DNA of 64,000 bases from a virus, in IMG/VR virus record IMGVR_UViG_3300037461_000428, positions 1-64,000 of that record. One strand, written 5' to 3'. Shown one piece after another: positions 2,686-24,030 of this stretch. The position numbers and the translations under genes were made by a program. A model generated the notes under the pieces. The model did no database searches, was not told where the DNA came from, and worked only from the letters and a program-made list of their open reading frames with translations. Position 1 is the first letter of the stretch; each line of letters starts with the position of its first letter.

Positions 2686-3308
2686 GAAAAGAATTTTTAG
2701 AATTTACCTGCACTAAAGAATGCCCATATACTTCTACTTGCTGTCGATTGCCCACTGAAGTAATCAAGCATGAAGGTAGAGAAGGAATAGATATTTTAAT
2801 ATTTGGACAAGGAGCCGGTAAAGACGAAGCAAAAATTGGTCGATGTTTTGTGGGTCGAAGTGGAAAATATATGAGAAGTATAATCAAATCTCTTTGGGAT
2901 AATCCAGAGGTCGGTCCTTTTAATATAGCTTTAACAAATAATGTAAGATTTAGACCAGAAGACGAAAATGGAAAAGACAGAATGCCAACCGCAGAAGAGA
3001 TATCTAGATGCATAACTCATTTACATAGAGATATTGCTCAACTTAATCCAAAGGTTATTGTGCCAGTTGGTAAAAATGCAACTTTATCAATATTAAATAC
3101 GTCGCCAACTTTTTTAAATGTTTCAATAGCTACTATGATTTCTCTGAGAGGAAACGTATTTACTAATACTAACGGAATAAAAAGGACTGTTATTCCTACT
3201 TGGCACCCGTCTTTTTTGTGTCGTCAATATGGGGGGTTTGATCCAACAAAGAATAACAAATACGACAAAGAGTTTATTGCAGATATCCTCAAAGCATTGG
3301 AGTGTTAG
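2682..3308 (+). CDS. uracil-DNA glycosylase, family 4-like
   Basis: GQGAGKDEAKIGRCFVGRSGKYM matches the GEAPG..E...G.PFVG.AG motif. TWHPSFLCR matches the HPS motif. N-terminal Cys cluster CTKECPYTSTCC. Confidence 0.75.
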   Translation: MRKEFLEFTCTKECPYTSTCCRLPTEVIKHEGREGIDILIFGQGAGKDEAKIGRCFVGRSGKYMRSIIKSLWDNPEVGPFNIALTNNVRFRPEDENGKDRMPTAEEISRCITHLHRDIAQLNPKVIVPVGKNATLSILNTSPTFLNVSIATMISLRGNVFTNTNGIKRTVIPTWHPSFLCRQYGGFDPTKNNKYDKEFIADILKALEC

Positions 3309-3623
3309 ATGAATAAAAATCTACGTAAAGCCATATTAAAAAGTATTGAGCATTGGCATCAGAATCTTGATATGTTAATATTGAACAACCTTAGTAATCA
3401 CTATCTTATAGATGATATAAGTATACTTGGAGAAGATTGTGCTTTATGTATATATTTGCATAGTTTGTGTTGTGATTGTCCATTATATGATAATTATAAA
3501 TGGAATTGTTGTAAAGAATATCAATCTGTAATTAATTGGTATTATGGTAATCATCGTACATATACTATTGGTTATAAAGTTATAAGTGTGATGCTTGAGA
3601 AACTTTATAGTTTATTAGATTAA
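3309..3623 (+). CDS. hypothetical Cys-rich protein
   Basis: 104-aa ORF whose ATG abuts the upstream stop. Confidence 0.55.
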   Translation: MNKNLRKAILKSIEHWHQNLDMLILNNLSNHYLIDDISILGEDCALCIYLHSLCCDCPLYDNYKWNCCKEYQSVINWYYGNHRTYTIGYKVISVMLEKLYSLLD

Positions 3624-3788
3624 TATAACTTGGTAGTATGCTTAGAAGTAGCAAGCTTTAATGAGTAGAGTGATACTGCCACTACCCACGGGGGCTATTC
3701 TTAATAATAGAGAATGTGCTAGGGTGGGAGTGGATAAACAGATCAACCTTAATAGGGCTCTTTTGGTGTAATAACACGCCAAGTTATA
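3624..3788 (+). ncRNA. candidate structured RNA (unknown family)
   Basis: No ORF. Closing stem TATAACTTGG/CCAAGTTATA. Inner stems GGTAGTAT/ATACTGCC, GCTT/AAGC and CCACTACCCA/TGGGAGTGG. Confidence 0.3.
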
Positions 3789-3799
3789 TTTAATATCAT

Positions 3800-3847
3800 A
3801 CAACTATCAAAGGTTGCCATTAAAACGGCAACCTTTTGTTTAGTTGT
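3800..3847 (+). repeat. boundary hairpin of cassette array A (attC-like, also terminator-like)
   Basis: ACAACTA-TC-AAAGGTTGCC loop GGCAACCTTTT-GTT-TAGTTGT. Near-identical copies at 10429 and 23251. Confidence 0.8.
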
Positions 3848-3900
3848 AGTCAATGCTGCGCCTCTCTGAATTTATAGGCGCGGCCAAGAAAGGAATAACA

Positions 3901-4158
3901 ATGTCAACATGTCAATCGTGTGGTGGAATTATCGGTCGAGATTGTTTTAATCCTGAAGAGTGTGCTTGGATTACTCAGCAACAGGCCAACCAATGCGAGG
4001 CCGCGCAGTACAACGCGGAAGAGGCACAGCACAGCCTACAACAGCTAAAGGCTGAAATTGCCACTCTTGTCGATAAACTTGAGGCTATTTCGGCGGAGTA
4101 TTTATATCACCATAATTATGTAATTATTAATAAGCTGCGGCAACTATCAGCCGTTTAG
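3901..4158 (+). CDS. small cassette protein (Cys-rich N-terminus, coiled-coil-like)
   Basis: ATG after AAGAAAGGAATAACA. It ends ...LRQLSAV like the paralog at 12184-12528. The track ORF starts at 3853. Confidence 0.6.
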   Translation: MSTCQSCGGIIGRDCFNPEECAWITQQQANQCEAAQYNAEEAQHSLQQLKAEIATLVDKLEAISAEYLYHHNYVIINKLRQLSAV

Positions 4159-4168
4159 CAAACGTTGG
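4038..4168 (+). repeat. attC-like imperfect hairpin (E-element)
   Basis: 5' arm ACAAC-AGC-TAAAG-GCTG. 3' arm CAGCC-GTTTAGC-AAAC-GTTGG. Long loop that contains the ORF end. Confidence 0.6.
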
Positions 4169-4200
4169 TTGCAATGTTTGCACACAAGAAAGGTTAATAT

Positions 4201-4434
4201 ATGGCGGCATTTAACGAGTGGTGGGAAGAGGCGCGTGAAGCATTAGCAGGATTTACCGACAAGGGAGTCGCTCATTTTGCGTGGGATGCCGCCATTAAGA
4301 GCTTGGAAGGTGTGCAAACACAGACAACCAACTGCCAAAGTGCGCCATGTCCTGTCTGCTCAACAGCATTACGGCTTGATGCAAATTTTTGTATGCAATG
4401 CGGCAGACGAGTACAGGACGAGGCGCACGTTTAG
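4201..4434 (+). CDS. small cassette protein, zinc-ribbon-like
   Basis: 77-aa ORF with RBS AGAAAGG. CPVC...CMQC pairs. Confidence 0.65.
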   Translation: MAAFNEWWEEAREALAGFTDKGVAHFAWDAAIKSLEGVQTQTTNCQSAPCPVCSTALRLDANFCMQCGRRVQDEAHV

Positions 4435-4447
4435 CAAACGTTGGTGG
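4324..4447 (+). repeat. attC-like imperfect hairpin (E-element)
   Basis: ACAACCAAC-TGCC-AAAG-TGCGCC ... GGCGCAC-GTTTAGCAAAC-GTTGGTGG. Distal stem GTGCGCC/GGCGCAC. Confidence 0.75.
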
Positions 4448-4482
4448 CAATTACGCCGCCGACAATTTATAGGAGCGCGATA

Positions 4483-4722
4483 ATGAGCACAGACTGGAGT
4501 GCTGCTAAGTATCGAAGAGAAGCCAAGCGGGAACCTGCGCGTCTTAAATTTTGGTTGCAGTATCACGATGACATCGACAGGGCAAGTAGAGATGTTTGCG
4601 ATAACCCGCCTGGCTTTGACGAATACTGGAGGCAGATGTTTCCTAACGCAAAAAGATATCGCGCTCAGCAGATTATTGAGCGGCGGCGCAACAGCCACCA
4701 ACACGCAAAGGGAATGAAATAA
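4483..4722 (+). CDS. small basic cassette protein
   Basis: ATG after TATAGGAGCGCGATA. The track ORF starts further upstream at 4441. Confidence 0.6.
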   Translation: MSTDWSAAKYRREAKREPARLKFWLQYHDDIDRASRDVCDNPPGFDEYWRQMFPNAKRYRAQQIIERRRNSHQHAKGMK

Positions 4723-4854
4723 TGCTTTACACTATTGTAATTTTATCGGTCGTCTGTGCCGTTTTACTCGGCATAGTAATATGGGGCATTTTCTTTTTAT
4801 CGAAGTTTGGTAATTGGAGATAGCGCATTACTTCACCCTTTTGCGGAACGTTGT
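4698..4854 (+). repeat. attC-like imperfect hairpin (E-element) with a mini-ORF in the loop
   Basis: CCAAC-ACGC-AAAGGG ... CCCTTTT-GCG-GAAC-GTTGT. The middle box is CGC/GCG here but TGC/GCA in other copies, which is a compensatory change. Confidence 0.7.
4722..4823 (+). CDS. small hydrophobic peptide, 33 aa
   Basis: The ATG overlaps the upstream TAA. Translation MLYTIVILSVVCAVLLGIVIWGIFFLSKFGNWR. Lies inside the loop of hairpin 4698-4854. Confidence 0.45.
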   Translation: MLYTIVILSVVCAVLLGIVIWGIFFLSKFGNWR

Positions 4855-4886
4855 ACGCAATAATTTGCTTAAGAAAGGTTTGATAT

Positions 4887-5105
4887 ATGGCCGCAAAAAG
4901 AAGCATCACTTGTATTAAACGAGATGTATGTATCTACCACATTGGACATAAATTTCCTGCCTGTAGTGGTTGCGGCCATTACATTAAGGAAACGCAAATT
5001 ACAGCGCACAACTGCCAAAGTACGCCGTGTTGTTCAGAGTGTGGTAGCACTTGTGTTTTAGTAATGTGTAATACTTGTGGTCATCGACATTGTTATTTAA
5101 AATAG
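4887..5105 (+). CDS. small Cys-rich cassette protein
   Basis: 72-aa ORF with RBS AAGAAAGG. Multiple CxxC pairs. Confidence 0.65.
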   Translation: MAAKRSITCIKRDVCIYHIGHKFPACSGCGHYIKETQITAHNCQSTPCCSECGSTCVLVMCNTCGHRHCYLK

Positions 5106-5131
5106 CACGGCGCACGTTTAGCAACCGTTGT
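5004..5131 (+). repeat. attC-like imperfect hairpin (E-element)
   Basis: GCGCACAAC-TGCC-AAAG-TACGCCGTG ... CACGGCGCAC-GTTTAGCAAC-CGTTGT. Confidence 0.75.
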
Positions 5132-5308
5132 AAGAAATAAATTTTGCTCTTTTAAATTATAAAGGCGCGGCGAACATTGCACGATCTAATTAATCGTGCG
5201 GTCAAATGCTGGTTAATTGCACAGGATATTGCCAGAGGTGTGATCGTGAACTGTGTACGAAGATCACCCCGCGCCTAATTTATTGTAGCAAAATTTACAT
5301 CTTACAAC
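5127..5308 (+). repeat. non-coding cassette closed by a long terminal stem (R-type)
   Basis: GTTGTAAGAAATAAATTTTGCT pairs with AGCAAAATTTACATCTTACAAC (20 of 22 positions). Inner stem AAAGGCGCGG/CCGCGCCT. No ORF of 60 aa or more. Confidence 0.7.
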
Positions 5309-5362
5309 AGCTAAAGGAATGCAACGCCAAAATTGGCGTAGCATCCGTTTAGCAAACGTTGG
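5304..5362 (+). repeat. compact attC-like hairpin (E-element)
   Basis: ACAAC-AGC-TAAAG-GAATGC [ACGCC..GGCGT] GCATCC-GTTTAGCAAAC-GTTGG. No coding content. Confidence 0.75.
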
Positions 5363-5418
5363 TTGCAATAAACCACCATGAATATTATAGTTCGGCGCAC
5401 AATAAAGGAGGTTGCCGC

Positions 5419-5634
5419 ATGAAAATAAAACAGATTACCGATCAGCATCGCAGAGATTTTTCAGCTATTTATATTTGCGAACATTGTGGTGTCGAAGAAA
5501 AAGGTAGTGGATATGATGATGATAATTTTCACCGCAATGTTATTCCTAATAAAGTTTGCAAATCATGCGGCAAAAAAGCACCGGAAGATTATTGTCCTAT
5601 CGGCACAAAATATCCTGCATACGCAGTTGTATAA
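5419..5634 (+). CDS. small zinc-ribbon cassette protein
   Basis: ATG after AAAGGAGG. CEHC...CKSC pairs. The gene is bracketed by the inverted repeat TTCGGCGCACAA (5391) / TTGTATAATGCGCCGAA (5627). Confidence 0.65.
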   Translation: MKIKQITDQHRRDFSAIYICEHCGVEEKGSGYDDDNFHRNVIPNKVCKSCGKKAPEDYCPIGTKYPAYAVV

Positions 5635-5670
5635 TGCGCCGAATTAAAATTAAGGATTGGTGGTTTACAT

Positions 5671-5724
5671 CAACCAACACGCAAGTCACGCCATAGAAGC
5701 GGCGTGAACTTGCGGACACGTTGT
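5671..5724 (+). repeat. compact attC-like hairpin (E-element)
   Basis: CAACCAAC-ACGC-AAGTCACGCC loop GGCGTGAACTT-GCG-GACAC-GTTGT. Confidence 0.75.
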
Positions 5725-5772
5725 AGTCAATTCCGGTTTTGAAAACCTTTTATTATAGGAGCGCGCAAGAAA

Positions 5773-6045
5773 ATGAAATTATTAAACGATATCAACATTG
5801 TTGTGTCTAACAATTTTATTGAACTTATGGCATTAAAAGCTGAGTCGGATGGTATGCTTTCTGAAAATTATCAACGGATGGCATTATCACAAAGTATGGC
5901 GTATGCAGAAAAAGATTTTCTTTACGTAGCGGATAGAATGCGCGCTCTGAAATATGATGAAGCAAAACCGGAACAGCCTACAACAACGCAAGGCCAAAAC
6001 GCCCAAAGCGGCGCATCGGCCTTGCGTAAACGTTGTAAGAAATAA
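5773..6045 (+). CDS. small cassette protein
   Basis: 90-aa ORF, ATG after TATAGGAGCGCGCAAGAAA. Translation runs through the whole hairpin 5980-6036. Confidence 0.6.
   Translation: MKLLNDINIVVSNNFIELMALKAESDGMLSENYQRMALSQSMAYAEKDFLYVADRMRALKYDEAKPEQPTTTQGQNAQSGASALRKRCKK
5980..6036 (+). repeat. compact attC-like hairpin (E-element)
   Basis: ACAAC-AACGCAAGGCC loop GGCCTTGCGT-AAAC-GTTGT. Confidence 0.75.
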
Positions 6046-6171
6046 GACTTGCTTTTATGATTATAAGCGGCAAAGTTTCTTTGGGTGTAGATTTTAAAAA
6101 CCTCCGCACGGATGCTACTGAACGTGTGGTTTGCAACTTACATTATGGAGGCAAGTCTTACATCTTACAAC
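6032..6171 (+). repeat. non-coding cassette closed by a long terminal stem (R-type)
   Basis: GTTGTAAGAAATAAGACTTGC pairs with GCAAGTCTTACATCTTACAAC. The variable hexamer covaries relative to 5127 and 10472. Confidence 0.7.
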
Positions 6172-6265
6172 AAATAAAACCTGCAATGCCGCCTGTCCAC
6201 CTATTAGGACTGGATCGCTTTAAATGCGGCGTGCGGCGGCAAAGCAGGTGTTTATCGGACGTTGT
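6167..6265 (+). repeat. attC-like imperfect hairpin (E-element)
   Basis: ACAAC-AAATAAAA-CCTGCAATGCCGCC ... GGCGGCAAAGCAGG-TGTTTATCGGAC-GTTGT. Confidence 0.65.
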
Positions 6266-6307
6266 ACGCAATGCCACTTTAAATTAGATGCGGCGGGAGG
6301 TGTTAAA

Positions 6308-6580
6308 ATGGTTTTCTCATGTCCAAAGTGTCACGGTGCAATATATCCGTCAGATAATGTTGACTATTACGATTGCGAAGATTGTCATCACTTGTATCAT
6401 ATCGAATATTTAAAAGGTTTTGTTGCAGGTAAAATGTCCGCCGCAAAAGCGATGGAACAAAGTGGCACAGCGCACAACACGCAAAGTGACGGCATGTTTA
6501 ACTGTCCACCATTATGCCCTGTCTGTGGTCGATGTCATGTGCCATCAATAGAGTGTTTGCCATTACTGAGTATCAGTTAA
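6308..6580 (+). CDS. small Cys-rich cassette protein (two zinc-ribbon-like units)
   Basis: ATG after GGGAGGTGTTAAA. CPKC..CEDC and CPVCGRC motifs. The track ORF 6224 begins upstream, inside the preceding hairpin. Confidence 0.6.
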   Translation: MVFSCPKCHGAIYPSDNVDYYDCEDCHHLYHIEYLKGFVAGKMSAAKAMEQSGTAHNTQSDGMFNCPPLCPVCGRCHVPSIECLPLLSIS

Positions 6581-6608
6581 ACACGACCGCACGTTTGCGG
6601 AACGTTGT
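6470..6608 (+). repeat. attC-like imperfect hairpin (E-element)
   Basis: GCGCACAAC-ACGC-AAAG-TGACGG ... CCGCAC-GTTT-GCG-GAAC-GTTGT. Confidence 0.7.
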
Positions 6609-6634
6609 TTGCAATTGCAATTGAGGAAAAATAT

Positions 6635-6829
6635 ATGATAGTCGAGCTTGCACAAGAAGCGGCAGAGTTAATCAAAGTGTATCGTGATAAAAATATTGTA
6701 ATTGATAACTGGCAGTATAGGGTGCAAGCTCTATTAATTGCAGTAGCTCAATTGCAACAGACAAACAACTCGCAAAGGAATGCAATGGCGGTCGAGCCGA
6801 GTACGGTAAACGAGCAATCGTTTCATTGA
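6635..6829 (+). CDS. small cassette protein
   Basis: ATG after GAGGAAAAATAT. 64 aa. Confidence 0.55.
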   Translation: MIVELAQEAAELIKVYRDKNIVIDNWQYRVQALLIAVAQLQQTNNSQRNAMAVEPSTVNEQSFH

Positions 6830-6894
6830 GCAAGCTCAGTGGCACACGTAAGATCGTGTGGTGTCCGCCACTGCATCCATTTGCGGGACGTTGT
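6765..6894 (+). repeat. attC-like imperfect hairpin (E-element)
   Basis: ACAAC-TCGC-AAAG-GAATGCAATGGCGG ... CCGCCACTGCATCC-ATTT-GCG-GGAC-GTTGT. Confidence 0.75.
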
Positions 6895-6928
6895 ACGCAA
6901 TGCCACTTTAAATTGAAAGGAGTTTGCC

Positions 6929-7138
6929 ATGTTACAAGAGGTAATTGATTTTCTTGACCATCAATTTTCAATGAAAGACGCAACAATTTTATACCGTGAC
7001 CAATGGCAAACTCTGAAATCTGCGGTACTTGCGGCACAGCCAACCAACTGCCAAAGTGCGCCATGTTCTTTTTGCGGCAGAGCGGTTACGGTTCAATTTC
7101 CGATATGTTTTGAGTGCCGTGGTAAAATTCATGATTAA
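6929..7138 (+). CDS. small zinc-ribbon cassette protein
   Basis: 69-aa ORF, ATG after GAAAGGAGTTTGCC. CSFC...CFEC pairs. Confidence 0.65.
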   Translation: MLQEVIDFLDHQFSMKDATILYRDQWQTLKSAVLAAQPTNCQSAPCSFCGRAVTVQFPICFECRGKIHD

Positions 7139-7164
7139 CAAGGCGCACGTTTAGCGACCGTTGT
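7041..7164 (+). repeat. attC-like imperfect hairpin (E-element)
   Basis: CAACCAAC-TGCC-AAAG-TGCGCC ... GGCGCAC-GTTTAGCGAC-CGTTGT. Paralogous to 4324 and 5004. Confidence 0.75.
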
Positions 7165-7199
7165 ACGCAATTGTAAATTTTAAACAGGAGTATTATAAT

Positions 7200-7430
7200 A
7201 TGCTCGCTCAACCATGCCCTTTTTGTGGTAGCAGTATTAGAATCTTTGACAATGTAGGAGGCCAGTGCGTTACTCATAAACACGATACCTGCTGTTTGAG
7301 TCACATGGTATTTAGATTGCGGTCATGGAATGAGCGAGCAAACGCTGTGGAAGAAAATTTACAACAGCGCACAACACAGCAAGGCACACAAGCCGCAAAA
7401 GAAAAAGACGCGGCCAGCGGCCATTGCTGA
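7200..7430 (+). CDS. small cassette protein (CPFC motif)
   Basis: ATG after CAGGAGTATTATAAT. In this gene the conserved GCGCACAAC arm is read as R-T-T, not as A-H-N. Confidence 0.6.
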   Translation: MLAQPCPFCGSSIRIFDNVGGQCVTHKHDTCCLSHMVFRLRSWNERANAVEENLQQRTTQQGTQAAKEKDAASGHC

Positions 7431-7438
7431 AACGTTGT
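7367..7438 (+). repeat. attC-like imperfect hairpin (E-element)
   Basis: GCGCACAAC-A-CAGCAAGGC ... GGCCATTGCTG-AAAC-GTTGT. Confidence 0.65.
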
Positions 7439-7471
7439 ACGCAACCGGCAATGAAACTATAGGAGCGCAAT

Positions 7472-7597
7472 ATGTCGCAGATCGAAAAGAATACGCAGTC
7501 TATTGAGGCACTTGCAGAAGAAATACGGTTGTTACGTGAACAAGTTATTGCGCTCAAAGAGCAATTGGAATCATTGCCAGCAGCGCACAACAAATAA
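7472..7597 (+). CDS. small coiled-coil-like cassette protein, 41 aa
   Basis: ATG after TATAGGAGCGCAAT. Translation MSQIEKNTQSIEALAEEIRLLREQVIALKEQLESLPAAHNK. Below the track cutoff. Confidence 0.5.
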   Translation: MSQIEKNTQSIEALAEEIRLLREQVIALKEQLESLPAAHNK

Positions 7598-7725
7598 AGG
7601 TTAAAATTGTGGCCGATACCAAAAAACGCAGTTCAAGCTTCTCTGATCTCAAAAGAAGTATGGCGGTTTTACATAAAGTTTCCGCTGCAAAGCGGCCACA
7701 ACTTCAACCATTTATCGCACGTTGT
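7583..7725 (+). repeat. attC-like imperfect hairpin (E-element)
   Basis: GCGCACAAC-AAA-TAAAGGTTAAAATTGTGGCC ... GGCCACAACTTCAACCATTTA-TCGCAC-GTTGT. Confidence 0.7.
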
Positions 7726-7810
7726 ACGCAATGCTGCCCTTAAAACATTATTAGAGTTTGCGGCGGCCAAGAACGCGGCATCGTGCCGCGAAGAGAAAGG
7801 CAAAAACAAA

Positions 7811-8833
7811 ATGCAAATCACAAGAAACCTTATCGTACCAACTGGCAATATACTCGTGGTATCTGGAGCAAAAGGCAATTTGGAAATGCTTTCTCTTGCT
7901 GATTATGGACAGAGCGTAAATCTAAACCAACACAAAGCAGTAGAAAACGGATTGCCGCTTTTGCCACTAACTGAAAAGTGGGTGGTTACAGTTTCAACAC
8001 AATACGGTTGTTCAATGTGCTGTGAATTTTGCGATGTGCCGAAAGTTGGAGCGGGAAAAAACGCTACATTTCACGATCTTTGTGGTCAAATTCTTACGGC
8101 GTTGACATTACCAAATGTTCCACAGCAGACCAAAAGATTAAATATTCATTTTGCGCGAATGGGGGAACCATCTTGGAACCCTGCTGTTCTTGATTGCGGG
8201 AAATGGATAATGGAACATCTTGGCGATACCTACAATCCGCATCCTGTTGTTTCTACAATGATGCCGCGTAAAAACGAATGGTTGAAAACATTTATTCATA
8301 ATTGGATGAGAATGAAAAACAGGGTTTATCGTGGGAATGCAGGCTTGCAGCTTTCAATAAATTCAACAGATGAAGAAGAAAGAAAAAGAATGTTTTCTGG
8401 CAATGCTTGTACGCTTGAGGAAATATCAGAAATCATGCGTGGCATTATCCCTGTCGGAAGAAAAATAACTCTCAATTTTGCAGTAGCGGGATACACTGTA
8501 GATTGTGATAAACTTGCAAGGCTTTTTTCTCCTGAATTGTTTATTGTAAAGCTAACACCGATGCACAAAACTGACAAAGCAATCCAGAACGGAATAAAAA
8601 CGGAAGGTGATTATACAACACCAGAACCGTATTTAGAACTTGAAACAAGATTACAAAAAGCTGGATTTGATACTCTTGTTTTTATAGCAAGCGATGATGA
8701 AGATAAAGGAAGAATAACTTGCGGTAATGCAATTCTTTCTGGAACATTACCAGAATGCAAATATCAAGAGACGCATCCCTGCGCCGAGAGGCCGCCGCAA
8801 GACACTGTAGAAACGGGCAGCACATGCGTATAA
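7811..8833 (+). CDS. radical SAM enzyme, RlmN/Cfr-like
   Basis: VSTQYGCSMCCEFCDV contains CxxxCxxC. MGEPSWNP, LQLSINSTDEEERKRMF and the C-terminal GRITCGNAILSG parallel RlmN/Cfr blocks. The start was moved to ATG 7811 because the track start 7607 runs through a hairpin. Confidence 0.8.
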   Translation: MQITRNLIVPTGNILVVSGAKGNLEMLSLADYGQSVNLNQHKAVENGLPLLPLTEKWVVTVSTQYGCSMCCEFCDVPKVGAGKNATFHDLCGQILTALTLPNVPQQTKRLNIHFARMGEPSWNPAVLDCGKWIMEHLGDTYNPHPVVSTMMPRKNEWLKTFIHNWMRMKNRVYRGNAGLQLSINSTDEEERKRMFSGNACTLEEISEIMRGIIPVGRKITLNFAVAGYTVDCDKLARLFSPELFIVKLTPMHKTDKAIQNGIKTEGDYTTPEPYLELETRLQKAGFDTLVFIASDDEDKGRITCGNAILSGTLPECKYQETHPCAERPPQDTVETGSTCV

Positions 8834-8912
8834 CAGCCGCAGTATGCAAAGCGGATTACACTATGGAGTTTATTAATTAATAGCCGCTCAGCACACATGC
8901 GGCATACGTTGT
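8832..8912 (+). repeat. probable E-element (arms less regular)
   Basis: AAC-AGCCGCAGTATGC-AAAGCGG ... CCGCT..CATGCGGCATAC-GTTGT. The pairing register is ambiguous. Confidence 0.35.
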
Positions 8913-8943
8913 AAGAAATAAATTTTGCTCTTTGTAATTGTAG
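8908..8943 (+). repeat. orphan 5' arm of an R-type cassette
   Basis: GTTGTAAGAAATAAATTTTGCTCTTTGTAATTGTAG is near-identical to 5127-5162, but no matching ...TTACATCTTACAAC partner follows. Confidence 0.5.
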
Positions 8944-9029
8944 TTTGCATACAGCGGGTTCCGGTAGACCAACCTACGGCACTCCAAAAAAGTAACATTA
9001 GTAACGGTCGCTAAGCGGAAACAGCTACC

Positions 9030-9156
9030 GACAGCCAAAAGGATGAAATTTGCCCTAATTGTGGCTGTGTTGCTATCAGTATTGGTAATAACAATTTTCT
9101 GTGCGGTTGTGAGCCTGATCGTTAGGCAAATTATCAGCCATTTAGCGATACGTTGT
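9030..9156 (+). repeat. probable E-element with a mini-ORF in the loop
   Basis: GACAGCC-AAAAGG-ATGAAATTTGCC ... GGCAAATTATCAGCC-ATTTAGC-GATAC-GTTGT. The core on the 5' side is degenerate. Confidence 0.45.
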
Positions 9157-9195
9157 GCGCAATTAAAATTTTTCTGGAGTTATAATGGTAACTAA
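9043..9195 (+). CDS. small hydrophobic peptide, 50 aa
   Basis: ATG after CCAAAAGG. Translation MKFALIVAVLLSVLVITIFCAVVSLIVRQ... It overlaps the next gene's start. Confidence 0.4.
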   Translation: MKFALIVAVLLSVLVITIFCAVVSLIVRQIISHLAIRCAQLKFFWSYNGN

Positions 9196-9373
9196 AAAAG
9201 AAATCGGTGATATGGTTTTTCAGATTATTCGTGAAAAATGTGTCAGCGATATGGCGGCATTTCGTGCATCTGAGGACGTTGCTATTTACATTGTGGATAA
9301 AATTTTACCAGCTGCTCTTTCTGCCAATGAAGATATAATCTTTAATAATTGGAAAGATGCAGAAAACAATTAG
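9185..9373 (+). CDS. small protein at the right edge of array A (KDAENN family)
   Basis: 62-aa ORF, ATG after CTGGAGTTATA. Its 3' end and the downstream 20 nt are repeated at 24480-24575. Confidence 0.65.
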   Translation: MVTKKEIGDMVFQIIREKCVSDMAAFRASEDVAIYIVDKILPAALSANEDIIFNNWKDAENN

Positions 9374-9404
9374 ACAATAAACGAATCGCGGAAGAGGAAT
9401 TAAT

Positions 9405-10118
9405 ATGGTTAAAGTAAATACAGACTTTGAAAAACTACAATTAAAAGCAAGAGATGCTCTCTATTTTATAGATAGTCATCCAGCTATTAATGGTAGCTTT
9501 TTTGGTGTACAAACTAGTTTGTGGTTTAGTATCCAAACAGTTTGTAAAAGAGGCCATAGTGAATATTCTATCAAAGACATGACTATTTATTATAGTAAAG
9601 AAAACTATAAAAAATTTAAAAAAGAATTCGATAAAGAAATAGCAGAAGATCAGGATTATTTCAAAAAGTGTCCAACATTAGTAAGTATACAAATGCCTTA
9701 TCAAAAAGTATTTGGAGAACCTTGGATATTTGACCATATAGAATATTGGGGCGAACTTACATTGCATATTTATAAAGGTAAGAAAGCTAAAGAGAAGTTT
9801 AACTTTCTAGACTGGGATAATTGGGAAGGACCGCACGCAGGAGGAAGAACTTACGAAGAAATGATTATTAACCTCGCTAAGAAAATGAAAAAAGAATGTG
9901 GTAATTTTGATTATTATAGTTTTCTGACTCCAGAAGAAATTAAGAATCATAAAGAGGAAGAGGTATTCTTCTGGAAAAAAGTTCCAGATACAAAAGAACA
10001 TAAAAACTATTCTACTATTATACCTAACAAAAAGTATATTAAAGTAAGCGACGCCGAAAAGAATCTTCGATGGCAAGAGTGGATGAAGATTAAGAAGAAT
10101 ATTTCTTATAATAATTAA
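9405..10118 (+). CDS. hypothetical protein
   Basis: 237-aa AT-rich ORF with GGAAGAGGAATTAAT before the ATG. No motif recognised. Confidence 0.7.
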   Translation: MVKVNTDFEKLQLKARDALYFIDSHPAINGSFFGVQTSLWFSIQTVCKRGHSEYSIKDMTIYYSKENYKKFKKEFDKEIAEDQDYFKKCPTLVSIQMPYQKVFGEPWIFDHIEYWGELTLHIYKGKKAKEKFNFLDWDNWEGPHAGGRTYEEMIINLAKKMKKECGNFDYYSFLTPEEIKNHKEEEVFFWKKVPDTKEHKNYSTIIPNKKYIKVSDAEKNLRWQEWMKIKKNISYNN

Positions 10119-10141
10119 CAGGAGAAATAAATGAAAGAATA

Positions 10142-10402
10142 TTGGATATGTATAGTTGTCCAGTAGAAGGAAGTAAATTACCAGAAGGTTCTGATAGTGC
10201 ACCTAGAAACGGCGCACAAACAGGAATGTACAGATTAGGATTAGACGATAAATATGATATATCGTCTGGGTGGGGACTTACCAAAGACCAAGTAAATAGA
10301 ATTTTAAATATTTGGAGAGAGCCCAGTTGTCAAGGTATATTTAAAAATAGACAAGGCGCAATTAAAAGACCAAAACCTAAAGTTGTAAAGAAAAAGAAAT
10401 AA
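10142..10402 (+). CDS. hypothetical protein
   Basis: 86-aa ORF with a basic C-terminus. The RBS is not convincing. Confidence 0.5.
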   Translation: MDMYSCPVEGSKLPEGSDSAPRNGAQTGMYRLGLDDKYDISSGWGLTKDQVNRILNIWREPSCQGIFKNRQGAIKRPKPKVVKKKK

Positions 10403-10428
10403 TGTTATTATTTAACAATTAACTGCAT

Positions 10429-10476
10429 ACAACTATCAAAGATTGCCATTAAAACGGCAACCTTTTGTTTAGTTGT
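10429..10476 (+). repeat. boundary hairpin of cassette array B
   Basis: ACAACTATCAAAGATTGCC attaaaac GGCAACCTTTTGTTTAGTTGT. A copy of 3800-3847. Confidence 0.8.
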
Positions 10477-10644
10477 AAGAAATAAACTTGGCTTTTGTCT
10501 TATAGAAAATGGTGCGAAAAATGCGCTTAATTAGTTGCTTAAAACAGCCCTCGGATTATTCGCTATTATCATGGAACCCGACCAAGCTGCCGGTTCGAGC
10601 GAGCCATTTTTTACATTATGGAAGCCAAGTTTACATCTTACAAC
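10472..10644 (+). repeat. non-coding cassette closed by a long terminal stem (R-type)
   Basis: GTTGTAAGAAATAAACTTGGC pairs with GCCAAGTTTACATCTTACAAC. The interior is unrelated to the other R copies. Confidence 0.7.
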
Positions 10645-10767
10645 AAATGCGTTATGCAATATCCCGCTCCGGCATGGTTGCCATAGCACTACTAGAAATG
10701 GTTCGCAAGGTGTAAACATGGATTCGAGTCCCATGGGCGGGATATAGCATAACACATCAACCGTTGT
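10640..10767 (+). repeat. attC-like hairpin whose loop holds a tRNA-like element
   Basis: ACAAC-AAA-TGC-GTTATGC ... GCATAAC-ACATCAAC-CGTTGT. Confidence 0.65.
10663..10742 (+). ncRNA. tRNA-like element (acceptor plus T-arm, no canonical anticodon arm)
   Basis: Acceptor CCCGCTC/GGGCGGG. T-arm ATGGA-TTCGAGT-CCCAT. GGCA-tggt-TGCC hairpin. The central arm has a 13-nt loop. Confidence 0.4.
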
Positions 10768-10795
10768 ACAAAATTAAAATTTTTCTGGAGGTTAT

Positions 10796-11029
10796 ATGGC
10801 AAAAACTTATCTGTGCCCATATTCTAAAACGGAGAGCATACGATGTAATTTACAAACACCATGTATAGAGTGTAAGGTATTTTTGCCGGACACTATGGAT
10901 AAAATTTTAACTTCGTACAACAAACAAAGTATGCCATTTTGTGCTTTACCGGATCATTGCGATATGCAAAGCGCAGTTTATTTATGTAATTGCGAATCGA
11001 TTTGTAAGCATAAACGGCATACTTTGTAA
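10796..11029 (+). CDS. small Cys-rich cassette protein
   Basis: 77-aa ORF, ATG after CTGGAGGTTAT. Confidence 0.6.
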   Translation: MAKTYLCPYSKTESIRCNLQTPCIECKVFLPDTMDKILTSYNKQSMPFCALPDHCDMQSAVYLCNCESICKHKRHTL

Positions 11030-11037
11030 AACGTTAG
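10914..11037 (+). repeat. attC-like imperfect hairpin (E-element)
   Basis: TCGTACAAC-AAA-CAAAGTATGCC ... GGCATACTTTG-TAAAAC-GTTAG. The distal stem is 11 perfect bp. Confidence 0.7.
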
Positions 11038-11078
11038 ATGCAATGTTCGCCTTAAAACAGTATAGGAGTTTTTCGCGC

Positions 11079-11327
11079 ATGAAACTATCTCGTTGTATTT
11101 GCGGTCGTGAAGCAAAAATATGGGCTGGGCAGTATGGGGATGAATTGCGTACAATTGAGTGTAATTGCGGCATCTCAACGTTGGCATGGTGGAACGGGAA
11201 TAAATGTGCCGCAAATTGGAATACAATTCAGCGCGAAAAAAGAAAAGTTGAAGCGGCGAACACAGCATCTAACAACAGCGTTACGCAAGCCGCAGAAACA
11301 AAAAGCACGGCCAGCGCAACACTGTAA
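11079..11327 (+). CDS. small cassette protein (CICG...CNCG)
   Basis: ATG after TATAGGAGTTTTTCGCGC. The track ORF 10941 begins inside the previous cassette. Confidence 0.6.
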   Translation: MKLSRCICGREAKIWAGQYGDELRTIECNCGISTLAWWNGNKCAANWNTIQREKRKVEAANTASNNSVTQAAETKSTASATL

Positions 11328-11334
11328 ACGTTGT
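11272..11334 (+). repeat. compact attC-like hairpin (E-element)
   Basis: ACAAC-AGCGTTACGC ... GCGCAACACTG-TAAAC-GTTGT (9 of 11 positions pair). Confidence 0.55.
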
Positions 11335-11374
11335 GCGCAATGGGCGCGGAGAGCGTTTTTATAGGAGCTGCCAA

Positions 11375-11560
11375 ATGAAAGTATCTGCTATTGAGCAAGT
11401 AGTGAAATATTATCAGTCAATCGTTGACTCGTTGCCTATTGGTGGTTTTGGCGTGAAGGTGTTACACGATGCTTTGGTGGAATTGGCCGCTCTGAAGGCA
11501 GCGGAGTCCGCGCCCACAGACGCACAACAAACCAATGGCGGCGCAAAGCCTAAATGCTGA
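11375..11560 (+). CDS. small cassette protein
   Basis: ATG after TATAGGAGCTGCCAA. 61 aa. Confidence 0.55.
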   Translation: MKVSAIEQVVKYYQSIVDSLPIGGFGVKVLHDALVELAALKAAESAPTDAQQTNGGAKPKC

Positions 11561-11591
11561 GTATAGCACTTCGCCATTGGTCTGACGTTGT
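11520..11591 (+). repeat. compact attC-like hairpin (E-element)
   Basis: ACGCACAAC-AAA-CCAATGGCG ... CGCCATTGG-TCTGAC-GTTGT. The distal stem is 9 perfect bp. Confidence 0.75.
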
Positions 11592-11623
11592 ACGCAATAT
11601 TTTGCTTAAGAAAGGTTTGATAT

Positions 11624-11851
11624 ATGGCTGCTAATACAGGAATACGATTGTTGCCAAAAAATCTTTCTGATTCTGATCGTGCTTTATGGCTTGCAGGTTA
11701 CGAAGCGGCCATTAACGCTATGGAAGCGCAAAATACAGTGCACAACATCAGCGTTATGCCATGTGTCGGTTGTCTGAACAAAATCACAACTTGTCGGCTT
11801 GGTTATCAGATCGAAGATCAGCCTTGTAACCAGCGCACGGCACAACACTGA
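11624..11851 (+). CDS. small cassette protein
   Basis: 75-aa ORF. Its 5' UTR (TTGCTTAAGAAAGGTTTGATAT) is the same as that of the gene at 4887. Confidence 0.6.
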   Translation: MAANTGIRLLPKNLSDSDRALWLAGYEAAINAMEAQNTVHNISVMPCVGCLNKITTCRLGYQIEDQPCNQRTAQH

Positions 11852-11860
11852 AAACGTTGT
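11738..11860 (+). repeat. attC-like imperfect hairpin (E-element)
   Basis: GTGCACAAC-ATCAG-CGTTATGCC ... GGCACAACA-CTG-AAAAC-GTTGT. Confidence 0.6.
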
Positions 11861-11887
11861 ATACAATATTTAACAATCGAGGTTAAT

Positions 11888-12136
11888 ATGTCAAATTTGA
11901 AACGATATACAGAGAGTTATTGTTGTGGTAAGTATGATGGCATGGAAGAGGATTCTCTCGCTGGCGAATGGGTCAAATTTGACGACATTAAGGAGTTGTT
12001 AAATACCGTGCACAACCGCCAAAGGGATGAAATATTGCATCTTATTATGGATGATTCGTTTGCTATTTCATTTCAGTCGTTTAGTCAGTATCGGTCGGCA
12101 TTGGTTAAAGAGATCGCAAAACTATCAGCCATTTAG
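11888..12136 (+). CDS. small cassette protein
   Basis: 82-aa ORF, ATG after CGAGGTTAAT. It ends ...KLSAI, encoded by the shared AACTATCAGCCATTTAG module. Confidence 0.6.
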   Translation: MSNLKRYTESYCCGKYDGMEEDSLAGEWVKFDDIKELLNTVHNRQRDEILHLIMDDSFAISFQSFSQYRSALVKEIAKLSAI

Positions 12137-12146
12137 CAAACGTTGT
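12008..12146 (+). repeat. E-element arms present but distal stems do not match
   Basis: 5' arm GTGCACAAC-CGCC-AAAG-GGATG. 3' arm CAGCC-ATTTAGCAAAC-GTTGT. This looks like a recombinant or decayed site. Confidence 0.35.
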
Positions 12147-12183
12147 AGTCCATAATTGTGCAACCATATCATAGGAGGTGCGT

Positions 12184-12528
12184 ATGTATATAGGCGGTAA
12201 TGAAATTTCTAAACAGGTGGATTTCTTCGAGCTAGAAGCTAAGAACCGTGTTACAGCTGGTGATTTTGATACGGCGCAATGGTGCATTCAAGCTGCAAAT
12301 GCCGCGTTTCAGGCGTATGTATGTATTTGTAAACGTGAACGCGCCGAAGAAAAACAGCCTACAACAGCTCAAGCATGTCAGCCGGAGGAAGCGGGCCACA
12401 CAAACAGCCAACAACTAAAATCCGAAATTGCCGCTCTTGTAGCGGAATGTAGTGCTAATGCCATCAATAGTGGTAATAATAAGTATCAGTGGTTAATTGA
12501 TAGACTGCGGCAACTATCAGCCGTTTAG
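12184..12528 (+). CDS. small cassette protein, paralog of 3901-4158
   Basis: ATG after ATAGGAGGTGCGT. It shares QQLK.EIA.LV and the terminal LRQLSAV with 3901-4158. Confidence 0.6.
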   Translation: MYIGGNEISKQVDFFELEAKNRVTAGDFDTAQWCIQAANAAFQAYVCICKRERAEEKQPTTAQACQPEEAGHTNSQQLKSEIAALVAECSANAINSGNNKYQWLIDRLRQLSAV

Positions 12529-12539
12529 CGGTACGTTAT
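12408..12539 (+). repeat. probable E-element
   Basis: CCAACAAC-TAAAA-TCCG ... CAGCC-GTTTAGC-GGTAC-GTTAT. A homolog of 4038-4168. Confidence 0.45.
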
Positions 12540-12566
12540 GCAAAAGTTTTAACGCTGGAGATTTAT

Positions 12567-12821
12567 ATGTCAACGCTCGATGATCTTTGGAACGACACTA
12601 TGTACGCATACCAAAATGGTGAGCTGTCGCGGGAACAGGTCGCGTTGAAATTTGCGGAGGCGTTAAAACCTTCGCACAACAAACCTATGCCAAAATTGCC
12701 GACACTGGCGGAATGTCAAACAGAGATACAGTCGCAGATATGGGGTGGCGGCTTTAAGGGAACATCTTCAAATATAACTGAGATTGTTTACAATTTTATA
12801 TGTCGGCAACTGTCGGCATAG
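12567..12821 (+). CDS. small cassette protein
   Basis: 84-aa ORF, ATG after CTGGAGATTTAT. Confidence 0.6.
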   Translation: MSTLDDLWNDTMYAYQNGELSREQVALKFAEALKPSHNKPMPKLPTLAECQTEIQSQIWGGGFKGTSSNITEIVYNFICRQLSA

Positions 12822-12833
12822 GTCGGACATTGT
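12672..12833 (+). repeat. attC-like imperfect hairpin (last element of array B)
   Basis: TCGCACAAC-AAA-CCTATGCC-AAAA-TTGCCGACA ... TGTCGGCAA-C-TGTC-GGCATAGG-TCGGAC-ATTGT. Confidence 0.7.
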
Positions 12834-12876
12834 AAGCAATTTGTCTAAACTTTTAATGCTATACTATAACAATACT

Positions 12877-12923
12877 GGGGAATAACTCAATTGGTTAGAG
12901 TTCAAGTCTCTCTTCCCTTACCA
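12877..12923 (+). ncRNA. 47-nt tRNA-like minihelix ending in ACCA
   Basis: GGGAA/TTCCC acceptor-like stem, AATTGGTT D-loop-like segment, AGAG-TTCAAGT-CTCT T-arm, then TTACCA. Confidence 0.35.
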
Positions 12924-13361
12924 TTTTATAAGAAGGATCTTATTTCACATTATAATACATTAAAAACTGAGCTTCGTAACAAGAAGAATTTAATTAAGGC
13001 TCTTGTTCGAAGAGGATGGAAAGAAGAGAACATAGAAGTACATGATGAGGCCCAAAATTTAGTTGATTATCAAGGCGATAAAAGAAATCAGAAAGCTGAG
13101 ATAATTATACGCAGAAAATACGTAGGTGGTGCTTCTAATGATATGGGATTTAAGCTCCAATCAGATGGAACTTATCAGGCTATTATATCAGACTTTGACC
13201 GTAATAAATACGGTGATCAGTTCATGAAGAATCTTGAACTAGACTATGGTGTGGAACAGACTAAGGATGCATTCACAATGAACGGCTGGCAGTTTCAGGA
13301 ATCCACTGACGAAAAAGGAAATGTAGTATTGCTTGGTCAGGTTTACGAAGGAAGTTACTAA
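12891..13361 (+). CDS. DUF1257 (Ycf35-like) protein; start uncertain
   Basis: Paralog of 47479-47907. Shared segments are SHxxxxxTELxxKKxLxxAL and Y.A..D..... The best alignment begins at ATT 12942, 4 nt after AAGAAGGA. The track uses TTG 12891, which lies inside the minihelix. Confidence 0.6.
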   Translation: MVRVQVSLPLPFYKKDLISHYNTLKTELRNKKNLIKALVRRGWKEENIEVHDEAQNLVDYQGDKRNQKAEIIIRRKYVGGASNDMGFKLQSDGTYQAIISDFDRNKYGDQFMKNLELDYGVEQTKDAFTMNGWQFQESTDEKGNVVLLGQVYEGSY

Positions 13362-23231: not shown

Positions 23232-23250
23232 TATATAATTTTATTAACGT

Positions 23251-23357
23251 ACAACTATCAAAGGTTGCTATGCCGATAACATCCTGTGCGCGGGGTTGTT
23301 GATGACTGGCGCACCACCGACGCGACAACGCGGCACGGTAACCTTTTATTTAGTTGG
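23251..23357 (+). repeat. boundary hairpin of cassette array C with an insertion in its loop
   Basis: ACAACTATCAAAGGTTGC [about 60-nt GC-rich insert] GTAACCTTTTATTTAGTTGG. The arms match 3800 and 10429. Confidence 0.7.
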
Positions 23358-23389
23358 TTGCAATGCCGCAAGAATGAAAGGAATTTGCC

Positions 23390-23683
23390 ATGAAAAAAGT
23401 TATTAGCTCAGAGGAGCTAATAGCCGCCAACCCTTACTTTAAAGGTGGAGCGAAACACGTTCCACCAACTCACAAAGGGATGCAATGCGGGGGGTATGCG
23501 TTAGCGAGCGGTATGTGGCGTAACGTAACTATATCGCTTAGCGAAGCGAGCATTCATCGTCAAGATGAGCCTCCCACACAGCACCCATTTACGGACACGT
23601 TGTACGCAAGCTGGCCCTTAAAACAGCAGTATAGGAGCGCATTATGGGATTTGCATATAGATGTGATAAGTGTCACCAGTTAA
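23390..23683 (+). CDS. cassette protein
   Basis: 97-aa ORF, ATG after GAAAGGAATTTGCC. It reads through hairpin 23462-23603 and overlaps the next start. Confidence 0.5.
   Translation: MKKVISSEELIAANPYFKGGAKHVPPTHKGMQCGGYALASGMWRNVTISLSEASIHRQDEPPTQHPFTDTLYASWPLKQQYRSALWDLHIDVISVTS
23462..23603 (+). repeat. attC-like imperfect hairpin (E-element)
   Basis: CCACCAAC-TCAC-AAAGGG ... CCC-ATTT-ACG-GACAC-GTTGT. Confidence 0.55.
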
Positions 23684-23850
23684 CAGAGAGCCAAATTGTG
23701 CTTTGTCCATCGTGCGCTCCGAACATTAAGGAAGCGAGCCAACCAGTGCACAATTGCCAAAATGATGCAATTACTCGTGTTGAAAATAAATGTAATGAAA
23801 TATTGGAACGATTACCGCATCGGAATAGTGGTGAACTAGGCCCAGGTTAA
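23644..23850 (+). CDS. small zinc-ribbon cassette protein
   Basis: 68-aa ORF, ATG after TATAGGAGCGCATT. CDKC...CPSC pairs. Confidence 0.6.
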   Translation: MGFAYRCDKCHQLTESQIVLCPSCAPNIKEASQPVHNCQNDAITRVENKCNEILERLPHRNSGELGPG

Positions 23851-23867
23851 GCAATAGCACACGTTTA
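23746..23867 (+). repeat. E-element with a truncated 3' arm
   Basis: 5' arm GTGCACAAT-TGCC-AAAA. The 3' arm AGCACACGTTTA stops abruptly at an AT-rich palindrome. Confidence 0.4.
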
Positions 23868-23940
23868 TTAATAGTATTTATACTAGTTAATTAATAGCAC
23901 CTTATCCCAACTGGCCGAGGAAAAGGTGCTTAAAAACCTT

Positions 23941-24030
23941 CGCACAACAAACAAAGTACTCCATTATGTCCCACATAACGGGTTAGCAAAAATAGTAAGC
24001 GTACCGTATCCAGCGTGCGGTAAACGTTAT
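23941..24030 (+). repeat. probable E-element
   Basis: CGCACAAC-AAAC-AAAG-TACTCC ... GCGTGCGG-TAAAC-GTTAT. The distal stems do not match well. Confidence 0.4.

Follow-up and report, generated by a model that had tools for sequence, protein, structure and literature searches.

Why should the start of a small phage cassette be complementary to its own end, and not to the ends of its neighbours? The question is raised by a 64,000-nucleotide (nt) stretch of viral DNA (IMG/VR record IMGVR_UViG_3300037461_000428, positions 1 to 64,000; hereafter the window), which carries a row of about 25 small cassettes, the first starting at 3843 and the last at 12829. The junction motif ...AC|GTTG(T/G)NNGCAAT (the bar marks the junction) was seen about 25 times in the block 3797-12829, whose content of guanine plus cytosine (GC), about 41-43%, lies above that of the backbone, and a pattern search of the whole window gave 25 matches against 2 expected. 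A preliminary description of the sequence had claimed that the first ~20 nt after each junction pair with the ~20 nt just before the terminal hairpin of the same cassette, and had proposed integron-like units excised and circularised at G|TT, in which these segments would extend the hairpin into one long stem. The array in the window is no assembly artefact, since an independent short-read assembly of the same sample contains positions 3819-10472 as an exact contig; a second short-read contig of that sample stops at 3843.

Pairing of cassettes with their own ends

The first 28 nt of each of the 25 window cassettes were searched with RNAduplex against the remainder of the same cassette. In 20 of them, the first 20-28 nt paired with a segment of 20-30 nt whose end is the ...CAAC of the same cassette, the five exceptions being 6890, 8908, 9152, 12142 and 12829 (cassettes are named by their first position). 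The 5' arm (A) and the 3' arm (A') shared a common architecture, GTTGN5, AA, T(variable, 8-17 nt) : (variable')A, CA, N5CAAC, that is, a 9-bp core helix, in which A frequently faces C, followed by AA and CA in a 2x2 internal loop and by 8-17 bp specific to the cassette, which we call the barcode. For these 20 cassettes, full arms gave -24.4 kcal/mol with their own partners versus -9.6 with others (none of 10,000 permutations was as good), the variable part alone gave -12.7 versus -3.9 kcal/mol, and the best partner was the own one in 19 cases. Pairing was also evaluated as the folding gain obtained when 24 nt were appended to a construct consisting of A' plus the terminal hairpin. The cassette's own start contributed -20.1 kcal/mol under RNA and -12.5 under DNA parameters, compared with -6.5 and -3.4 for the start of the next cassette, its true array neighbour, and -6.8 and -3.3 for the starts of other cassettes; the own start was better than the next one in 19 of the 20 cassettes. 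Non-cognate ends, therefore, did not pair equally well. The complementarity claimed in the preliminary description was borne out in 20 of the 25 cassettes and turned out to be longer than claimed, reaching about nt 70 (see below); the seven pairs it had quoted all lay where it had placed them, and the mismatches that recur from cassette to cassette, AA facing CA and A facing C, were confirmed, as was the covariation of the core.

The same family was present in about 18 other metagenomic phage contigs. Pattern scans led to four IMG/VR contigs with arrays (L021, L035, L060 and L065), a 20-mer scan to 13 metagenome contigs and a further viral scan to more, while a first 14-mer scan of IMG/VR had returned mainly chance matches, with 4 real loci out of 119. 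Among 59 cassettes from about 15 contigs, 84.5% of the alignment cells were paired, versus 55% in shuffles and 31-44% in slid registers; the covariation score was 0.674 versus 0.160, a value reached by none of 500 shuffles, and most barcode columns contained all four Watson-Crick pair types. Cassettes of the multi-locus set had been chosen by the pairing of their first 24 nt, nt 25-70 having played no part in the choice. In the 80 unique cassettes collected across contigs, own versus other partners gave -10.0 versus -5.6 kcal/mol for the core, -13.7 versus -5.4 for the barcode and, for the extension (nt 25-70 against the 50 nt upstream of the own 3' arm), -23.0 versus -15.8, and none of 5,000 permutations matched any of the three values. 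Of 161 junctions called automatically, 99 had a partner; the total includes false junction calls and cassettes cut at contig ends. Cores varied by lineage, and the pairing was always kept; homologous cassettes showed compensatory changes, one from G-C to A-T (window 12535 versus L021 12013) and another from T-A to G-C.

The A:A' helix appeared in the minimum-energy linear fold of nearly every cassette, where it closes what we call module 1, so that the circularisation invoked in the preliminary description is not needed for pairing. These stems bridge loops of up to 1.1-1.7 kb, with only a weak trend between stem strength and loop length (rho = -0.26, p = 0.025), and the z-scores of whole-cassette folds ranged from about 0 to -10, mostly from -2 to -8. 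The start codon had its pairing partner 32-50 nt ahead of the 3' end in roughly 10 of 16 window cassettes, as in cassette 4164, where AUGGCGGCA pairs with UGCCGCCAU; ATGGCGGCA (4201) of the same cassette is paired with TGCCGCCAT, and in cassette 5720 the Shine-Dalgarno region GGAGCGCGCA is paired with UGCGCGCUCU.

A hairpin does follow the 3' arm, as had been described, but rather than a terminal part of the same structure it is a second, independently swapping module, closed in the same way by a core of its own (nGCnAAAG : CTTTnGCnAAC) plus a cassette-specific extension. Module-2 stems (B:B') gave -20.6 kcal/mol with own versus -9.7 with other partners, and their loops often contain a zinc ribbon in frame with the upstream open reading frame (ORF), or else a separate small membrane peptide or a tRNA-like RNA. 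Each junction is a local palindrome, since one stem ends with its 3' half directly against the 5' half with which the following stem begins (TTGCGTAAAC|GTT(G)TACGCAA). All three reading frames are used across the 3' core (TAHN|C, RTT|Q and LQ|QLK), both arms of cassette 5358 are untranslated, since its ORF (5419-5634) sits entirely in the loop, and a homologue of this cargo gene in a T4-like Yersinia phage has no arms; for these reasons, the conserved signal resides in the nucleic acid and not in the protein. An intein-like "HN|C" junction was considered and discarded as a by-product of one reading frame, the other two being used as well. In about half of the window cassettes, the upstream ORF ends 3-8 nt before the junction.

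Exchange of cassettes and half-cassettes

Comparison of seven contigs from related samples revealed blocks of 97-100% identity broken by replacements. In a block of three cassettes (P, Q and R), the upstream neighbour of P differed in nearly every one of the seven contigs, and R had five different downstream neighbours, identity beginning or ending at ...AAC|GTT.... Contig ends excluded, 63 of 129 homology-block ends (49%) lay at most 12 nt from an ...AAC|GTTG junction versus 6% of random positions, an eight-fold enrichment, and several further block ends fell at CAAC|. These comparisons support the view that the units from one GTTG to the next behave as exchangeable cassettes. They also indicate that modules 1 and 2 swap separately, at CAAC|: window cassette 4164 and L021 12324 have module 1 with both arms in common and unrelated modules 2 (with a homologue also in L130), and window cassette 3843 and L065 5363 share module 2 and differ in module 1.

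The triplet pair AAC|GTT was invariant at every junction. Crossovers, in turn, were not fixed at G|TT as the preliminary description had supposed, since chimeric cassettes had switched within the core (positions 9-12), within a shared barcode or past the barcode. L125_3250 carries another cassette's core, with the crossover in GAAAT (core positions 9-12); in L128_1033, the partner switches inside a 14-nt barcode common to two cassettes; and in window 6890, the entire 5' arm of 6261 is joined to an unrelated body. No integrase, transposase or reverse transcriptase was detected by Pfam among the 89 ORFs of the window or in the ORFs scanned beside related arrays, and none of 80 units showed a target-site duplication of at least 5 nt; 52 of them are bracketed, at the base of the stem, by directly repeated AAC...AAC. 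The R-box consensus of integron attC sites was also largely missing, RYYYAAC occurring in 5 and GTTRRRY in 4 of 88 junctions. Variable crossovers, separable modules, the lack of an integrase and of duplications, and the failure of the attC R-box together argue for homology-driven exchange at short common sequences, in line with the relaxed recombinases of phages (PMC3945230).

Exchange of this kind has a precedent in the PeSLs (promoter early stem-loop elements) of T4-type phages, where orphan genes are exchanged by homology at flanking repeats (PMC2839356, PMC4122927). In both systems, short conserved motifs surround orphan genes in hyperplastic regions and serve as points of homologous exchange, with a stem-loop between genes and no dedicated recombinase; as expected for PeSL-type exchange, contig comparison revealed the eight-fold enrichment of breakpoints at cores and crossovers that track homology. 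The cassette repeat differs in that no sigma-70 promoter was found in it. Promoter-like sites in 3300-13000 numbered 30 versus 27.9 expected, none at a fixed offset from the core, and the model of one promoter per cassette was accordingly rejected for want of both site enrichment and fixed spacing. Hairpins stand between all cassettes, most of them without a U-run, the terminator shape with U-run being found only in the element that leads the array (3809-3836, with a copy near 10443-10460). Moreover, PeSLs are local motifs, for which a long-range, cassette-specific closing stem has not been described. In the literature on cassette, hairpin and inverted-repeat systems of phages, PeSLs and phage CALINs (attC clusters without an integron integrase) were all that we found, and neither shows such stems. 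We rate the cassette-specific barcode stem as the new element, arrays of cassettes with recombination linkers being already known from phage hyperplastic regions. Invertible, shufflon-like segments were also considered and rejected, every cassette examined having the same orientation.

Possible roles of the stems

The reading that we prefer, with a probability of about 0.4, is that these are exchangeable phage accessory-gene cassettes, swapped by homology at their cores, in which each module folds on itself through its barcode stem. The array is a row of modules, each closed by an inverted repeat made of a family-wide core (GTTGN5-AA-T : A-CA-N5CAAC in module 1), an 8-17 bp barcode and, in module 1, an interrupted stem up to about nt 70. 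Cores abutting at ...AAC|GTTG... and ...CAAC|nGC... act, as the comparison of contigs indicates, as short common homologies at which cassettes and half-cassettes are swapped between co-infecting phages by homologous recombination or template switching. A dedicated site-specific recombinase would be unnecessary; the window codes for a RecA/UvsX-like recombinase. Barcode and extension would make each module fold on itself when single-stranded, most likely in the polycistronic transcript, and each cassette would constitute a self-contained folding unit despite the presence of some 50 near-identical complementary cores per molecule. With the 5' leader kept against its own 3' end, the stem could govern how translation starts, how the mRNA is processed or how stable it is, whatever the neighbouring cassettes, as a portable cassette requires.

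Because core homology suffices for exchange and leaves at least 50 bp of cassette-specific pairing unexplained, a pairing that constrains the codons at both ends of many proteins, we infer that the stems matter in the single-stranded state. As for which strand folds, our preference is for RNA rather than single-stranded DNA (ssDNA), on the grounds that arrays are co-oriented with transcription, that payloads include structured and tRNA-like RNAs closed by the same stems, that the leader and start codon often take part in the stem, and that loops reach 1.1-1.7 kb. Several observations weigh against this reading. The conserved A·C oppositions give the bottom strand a folding advantage in the cores (48 versus 22 cassettes) and in module-2 stems (65 versus 9), and the top strand is the better folder only in the extension. 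The gain of own over other pairing was identical on both strands, recent polymorphisms were split 4:4, and wobble counts, strand-specific energies and recent polymorphisms were conflicting or too few to assign the folding strand. The array starts right after a hairpin resembling an intrinsic terminator, and no promoter was found in 3300-13000. Most ORFs pass through the 3' arm into module 2, so that simple cleavage of both stem strands would truncate them. Finally, recombination alone leaves unexplained why the AA/CA loop is conserved in nearly every cassette of all lineages.

With such conflicting strand data, a role of the stems in ssDNA, for mobility and not for expression, is a serious rival, even if we hold it to be unlikely. 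A cassette on the lagging-strand template, or on an invading or annealing strand, would snap into a dumbbell (A:A' stacked on B:B') that brings the flanking junction cores together, and replication slippage or single-strand annealing proteins would then loop it out, with precise loss, or anneal it into an empty junction, with gain. No site-specific recombinase would take part, and well-folding cassettes would spread, so that selection would act at the level of the cassette. The pairing preference holds equally well with DNA parameters (-12.5 versus -3.4 kcal/mol), and the greater stability of cores and module-2 stems on the bottom strand, the AAC...AAC repeat at the foot of most stems and the very high cassette turnover among near-identical arrays would all fit. 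Precise excision of Tn10 and Tn5 is likewise stimulated by their own inverted repeats. The genes that adjoin the arrays (RusA, NinG, Gp157, UvsX and endonuclease VII, with recombination and resolvase functions) can be counted in its favour, but resolvase genes are commonplace in early phage regions of the "nin" type. In addition, where single-strand binding protein is present, ssDNA would have to snap back over rather long loops (130-1,700 nt), the apparently non-coding cassettes have elaborate, RNA-like internal folds, and the chimeras show that plain homology is enough for exchange.

It is rather unlikely, in our opinion, that the barcode stem serves as an "address" in a structure-dependent phage mobility system, in which a dumbbell or rod fold, of DNA or RNA, would be recognised instead of plain homology. 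Such a fold might be recognised for excision, circularisation and re-insertion at ...AAC|GTTG... by a hypothetical enzyme, for instance a structure-specific nuclease together with a ligase, or a recombinase other than IntI. If true, this would represent a second, independent invention of integron-like gene capture, among phages. Known mobile elements resemble the cassettes in part. REP/BIME-RAYT and IS200/IS605 systems also have mutually pairing repeats in alternating orientation, a conserved tetranucleotide head and a single-strand hairpin biology; the cassettes, in contrast, have no associated Y1 transposase (none in the window), carry genes and lack a GTAG head. Foldback and MITE-like elements share the combination of conserved outer ends and variable inner parts in inverted repeats around a payload, but our units have neither target-site duplications (0 of 80) nor a transposase, are strictly tandem and co-oriented, and have arms that covary as base pairs instead of being preserved as protein-binding sites.

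Punctuation for RNA processing appears doubtful. According to it, host RNase III or a phage nuclease would cut the early polycistronic transcript at the conserved helix of 9 bp, 2x2 AA/CA loop and 8-17 bp, releasing stem-closed mRNAs and small RNAs. In T7 early mRNA and around 16S and 23S rRNA, two stems and an internal loop punctuate a polycistronic transcript in this manner, and in rRNA operons the 5' and 3' flanks also pair over more than 1 kb around the product. A lower stem, an internal loop and an upper stem follow one another with hardly any variation in all our lineages, and this arrangement flanks every module, including those that are apparently non-coding or tRNA-like; the stops just before the junctions and the RNA ligase, Ro and RNA-repair gene set of this phage would also suit it. 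T7 RNase III sites, however, are local hairpins unconnected with cassette exchange, and the cassette 3' arm usually lies inside a continuing ORF; the likeness seen here is one of shape, and cuts on both strands would sever the many ORFs that cross A' into module 2. The responsible nuclease is hypothetical and, besides, processing would be a sub-case of the reading we prefer and not an alternative to cassette exchange.

An integron-like mechanism with an unseen recombinase is disfavoured, and we judge it improbable. The A' core, the hairpin and the next A core would form an attC-like ssDNA site, cut at G|TT by a tyrosine recombinase encoded elsewhere, and excised circles would be the form in which the complementarity of own start and own end lengthens the site. 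The resemblance to integrons and CALINs (PMC9892861) is considerable: cassettes are tandem, co-oriented and mostly promoterless, with AAC...GTT invariant at the boundary, and are separated by an imperfect hairpin of attC size (a median of 72 nt between cores, interquartile range 58-121, against an attC range given as 57-141 nt) with conserved irregularities. As in attC, the cores fold better as bottom strand, and the start of a cassette can pair with the 5' side of the terminal site that belongs to it. Cargo consists of small accessory genes in both cases and includes methyltransferases, as is reported for some of the integrase-less attC clusters of virulent phages, which are also reported to recombine with IntI1 (PMC9892861). 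Two elements of the integron-like idea put forward in the preliminary description also stood: the units are exchangeable in seven arrays, and there is a start/end "memory", the 3' core pairing better with the first 9 nt of its own cassette than with those of the next one in 69 versus 5 instances. Its remaining elements did not, as the crossover is not fixed, no integrase was found and the R-box consensus is largely missing. No tyrosine recombinase was found in the 64-kb window or in the sequence scanned beside related arrays, crossovers occur at several positions, some of them within barcodes, and half-cassettes swap at CAAC|, the "hairpin loop" of the phage arrays being itself a swappable and often coding module. 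The complementarity, moreover, covers 50-70 nt as against 6 nt in integrons, is cassette-specific and needs no circularisation, and nothing in integron biology calls for at least 50 bp of cassette-specific pairing. A 20-mer scan of 185,579 bacterial and archaeal species genomes gave only two single matches, neither of them surrounded by an array.

Least probable is that the complementarity has no function and reflects a few ancestral hairpin scaffolds homogenised by quasipalindrome (templated) correction, or recent common descent: leaders and 3' ends do fall into few recurrent types (e.g. CTTAAGAAAGG...ATGGCNGC paired with GCNGCCATTAAGGAAG) and some barcodes are common to different cassettes, but there are dozens of barcodes with all four Watson-Crick pair types per column, pairing is kept across lineages with different cores and GC content, the compensatory changes described above are at odds with it, and we know of no templated correction across loops of 130-1,700 nt.

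Accessory ("hyperplastic") regions of phages show the fastest turnover of anti-defence and host-takeover genes, and the gene traffic in them is known only in outline. The family offers a sequence-defined unit of exchange together with a population snapshot, in which identical cassettes stand in different orders. Should the stems act in RNA, they would exemplify a general design for the context-independent expression of portable genes; should they act in DNA, they would point to a new structure-dependent mobility mechanism, related to integrons in its logic. With the core motif and the barcode rule, metagenomes can be mined for such cassettes and their mostly uncharacterised cargo; motif and rule also account for the breaks of short-read assemblies at these loci, matters of interest to specialists in phage genomics and in integrons.

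Features of the array and its genomic setting

Table 1. Elements of the cassette arrays in the window (window coordinates; z, z-score of the whole-cassette fold).
Feature	Coordinates	Strand	5' arm (A)	3' arm (A')	Remarks
Array-leading element	3797-3842	+			CATACAAC|TATCAAAGGTTGCC...GGCAACCTTTTGTTTA; A'-type core and B:B'-type hairpin (stem 3809-3836 and T-run), intrinsic-terminator shape
Cassette	3843-4163	+	3843-3869	4015-4042	Module 2, 4043-4163; ORF 3901-4158 spans both modules
Cassette	4164-4439	+	4164-4186	4309-4332	z = -7.1; module 2 (4333-4439) codes for a zinc ribbon
Cassette	4440-4849	+	4440-4467	4674-4702	Module 2 with its own 33-aa membrane-peptide ORF, 4722-4823
Cassette	4850-5126	+	4850-4869	4993-5012	Zinc ribbon in module 2
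Apparently non-coding cassette	5127-5357	+	5127-5149	5286-5308	Interior strongly structured, z = -9.3
Cassette	5358-5719	+	5358-5379	5657-5678	Module 2 a plain hairpin
Cassette	5720-6031	+	5720-5742	5962-5984	z = -7.1; protein homologue in L021
Apparently non-coding cassette	6032-6260	+	6032-6059	6143-6171	
Cassette	6261-6603	+	6261-6281	6458-6478	
Cassette	6604-6889	+	6604-6626	6746-6769	
Chimeric cassette	6890-7159	+	identical to that of 6261	to 7048 (...CAGCCAACCAAC)	Arms non-matching
Cassette	7160-7433	+	7160-7187	7344-7375	
Cassette	7434-7720	+	7434-7460	7565-7591	
Cassette	7721-8907	+	7721-7740	8814-8834	Stem spans 1.1 kb
Two degenerate units	8908-9151, 9152-10471	+			5' cores present, matching barcode absent
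Apparently non-coding cassette	10472-10762	+	10472-10499	10617-10644	z = -6.9
Six cassettes with matching arms	10763, 11033, 11330, 11587, 11856, 12535 (starts)	+		ending at 10921, 11273, 11528, 11746, 12016, 12680	
Cassette 12142	within 10763-12828	+			No matching barcode
Further short array	23250-24025	+			Leading element with loop insert (23250-23352), cassettes 23353 and 23599; weaker arm pairing

The leading element lies between low-GC backbone genes and the first cassette. It belongs to a 52-nt element (CATACAAC, terminator-shaped hairpin, TTTA|GTTG) that is present three times, at 3797-3848, at 10426-10477 (98% identity) and, with an insert in the loop, at 23250-23352. The element always occupies a boundary between backbone and cassettes, in the manner of a landing pad, and short-read contigs end there. 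The copy at 10426-10471 closes the degenerate unit 9152-10471, which contains three backbone-like genes of low GC content (31%) and looks like a set of ordinary phage genes caught between two cassette junctions.

The cargo found so far includes zinc-ribbon proteins, a Lar-like anti-restriction protein, DNA methyltransferases, a radical-SAM-like protein and small structured RNAs. Cassette 7721 codes for a 340-aa protein with a CxxxCxxC motif that belongs to family phrog_24834 and has no Pfam match. ORF 5419-5634 encodes a 71-aa CxxC...CxxC protein whose homologues, at 68-75% nucleotide identity, occur in Streptococcus and in T4-like Yersinia phages; in the Yersinia phage examined, the gene has no inverted arms, is tightly packed among small ORFs and is flanked by direct repeats of the ribosome-binding region. 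Four regions lack a convincing ORF yet fold very strongly, with z-scores of -7 to -10 (5127-5357, 6032-6260, 10472-10644 and, in L126, 3021-3274 on the reverse strand). These non-coding cassettes, none of which matched an Rfam family, are possibly small phage RNAs carried as cargo. Module 2 of cassette 10472 contains a tRNA-like cloverleaf (10662-10743, T-arm GGATTCGAGTCC), called tRNA-Ser(aga) by ARAGORN at a relaxed threshold only and missed by default ARAGORN and by Rfam. More generally, Rfam gave no match within the array, either at the gathering threshold or with E-values up to 5.

Neither close relatives nor a related array were found among 50,697 sequenced phages (INPHARED, megablast and blastn), a single cargo gene having matched. 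The flanking uracil-DNA glycosylase had no relatives in IMG/VR, look-ups of exact proteins returned matches from the source sample only, and the scan of bacterial and archaeal genomes, with its two isolated matches, provided no host clue and no prophage copy. The backbones of related contigs vary, some being siphovirus-like (Gp157, RusA, NinG, primase), one with a terminase and some very large (170 kb). Their GC content ranges from 32 to 43%, the arrays being always a few points richer in GC than their own backbone. In L065, positions 8075-8590 on the reverse strand are occupied by an IS200-like element, an insertion sequence that matches Y1_Tnp (E = 4.5e-35) and has a hairpin of its own. It interrupts the 5' leader of one cassette, past the barcode and ahead of the ribosome-binding site, and leaves A:A' intact (-32 kcal/mol); its Y1 transposase was considered as a recombinase of the arrays and rejected, the insertion sequence being independent.

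The window itself is part of a large phage genome of low GC content (about 30-32%), with every gene on the + strand. Its genes include those for uracil-DNA glycosylase, DNA ligase, the UvsX/RecA-like recombinase, a UvrD helicase, a Clp-like ATPase and endonuclease VII, together with five tRNAs. An RNA-repair gene set is formed by RNA ligase, RlaP, cREC_REC and a Ro60/TROVE protein (34338-35888); the tRNA-Ile-like gene immediately upstream of the latter (34180-34248) could be a Y-RNA-like partner. At 44647-47466, a 939-aa AAA ATPase is split by an intein-like insert with Hint and LAGLIDADG homing-endonuclease domains.

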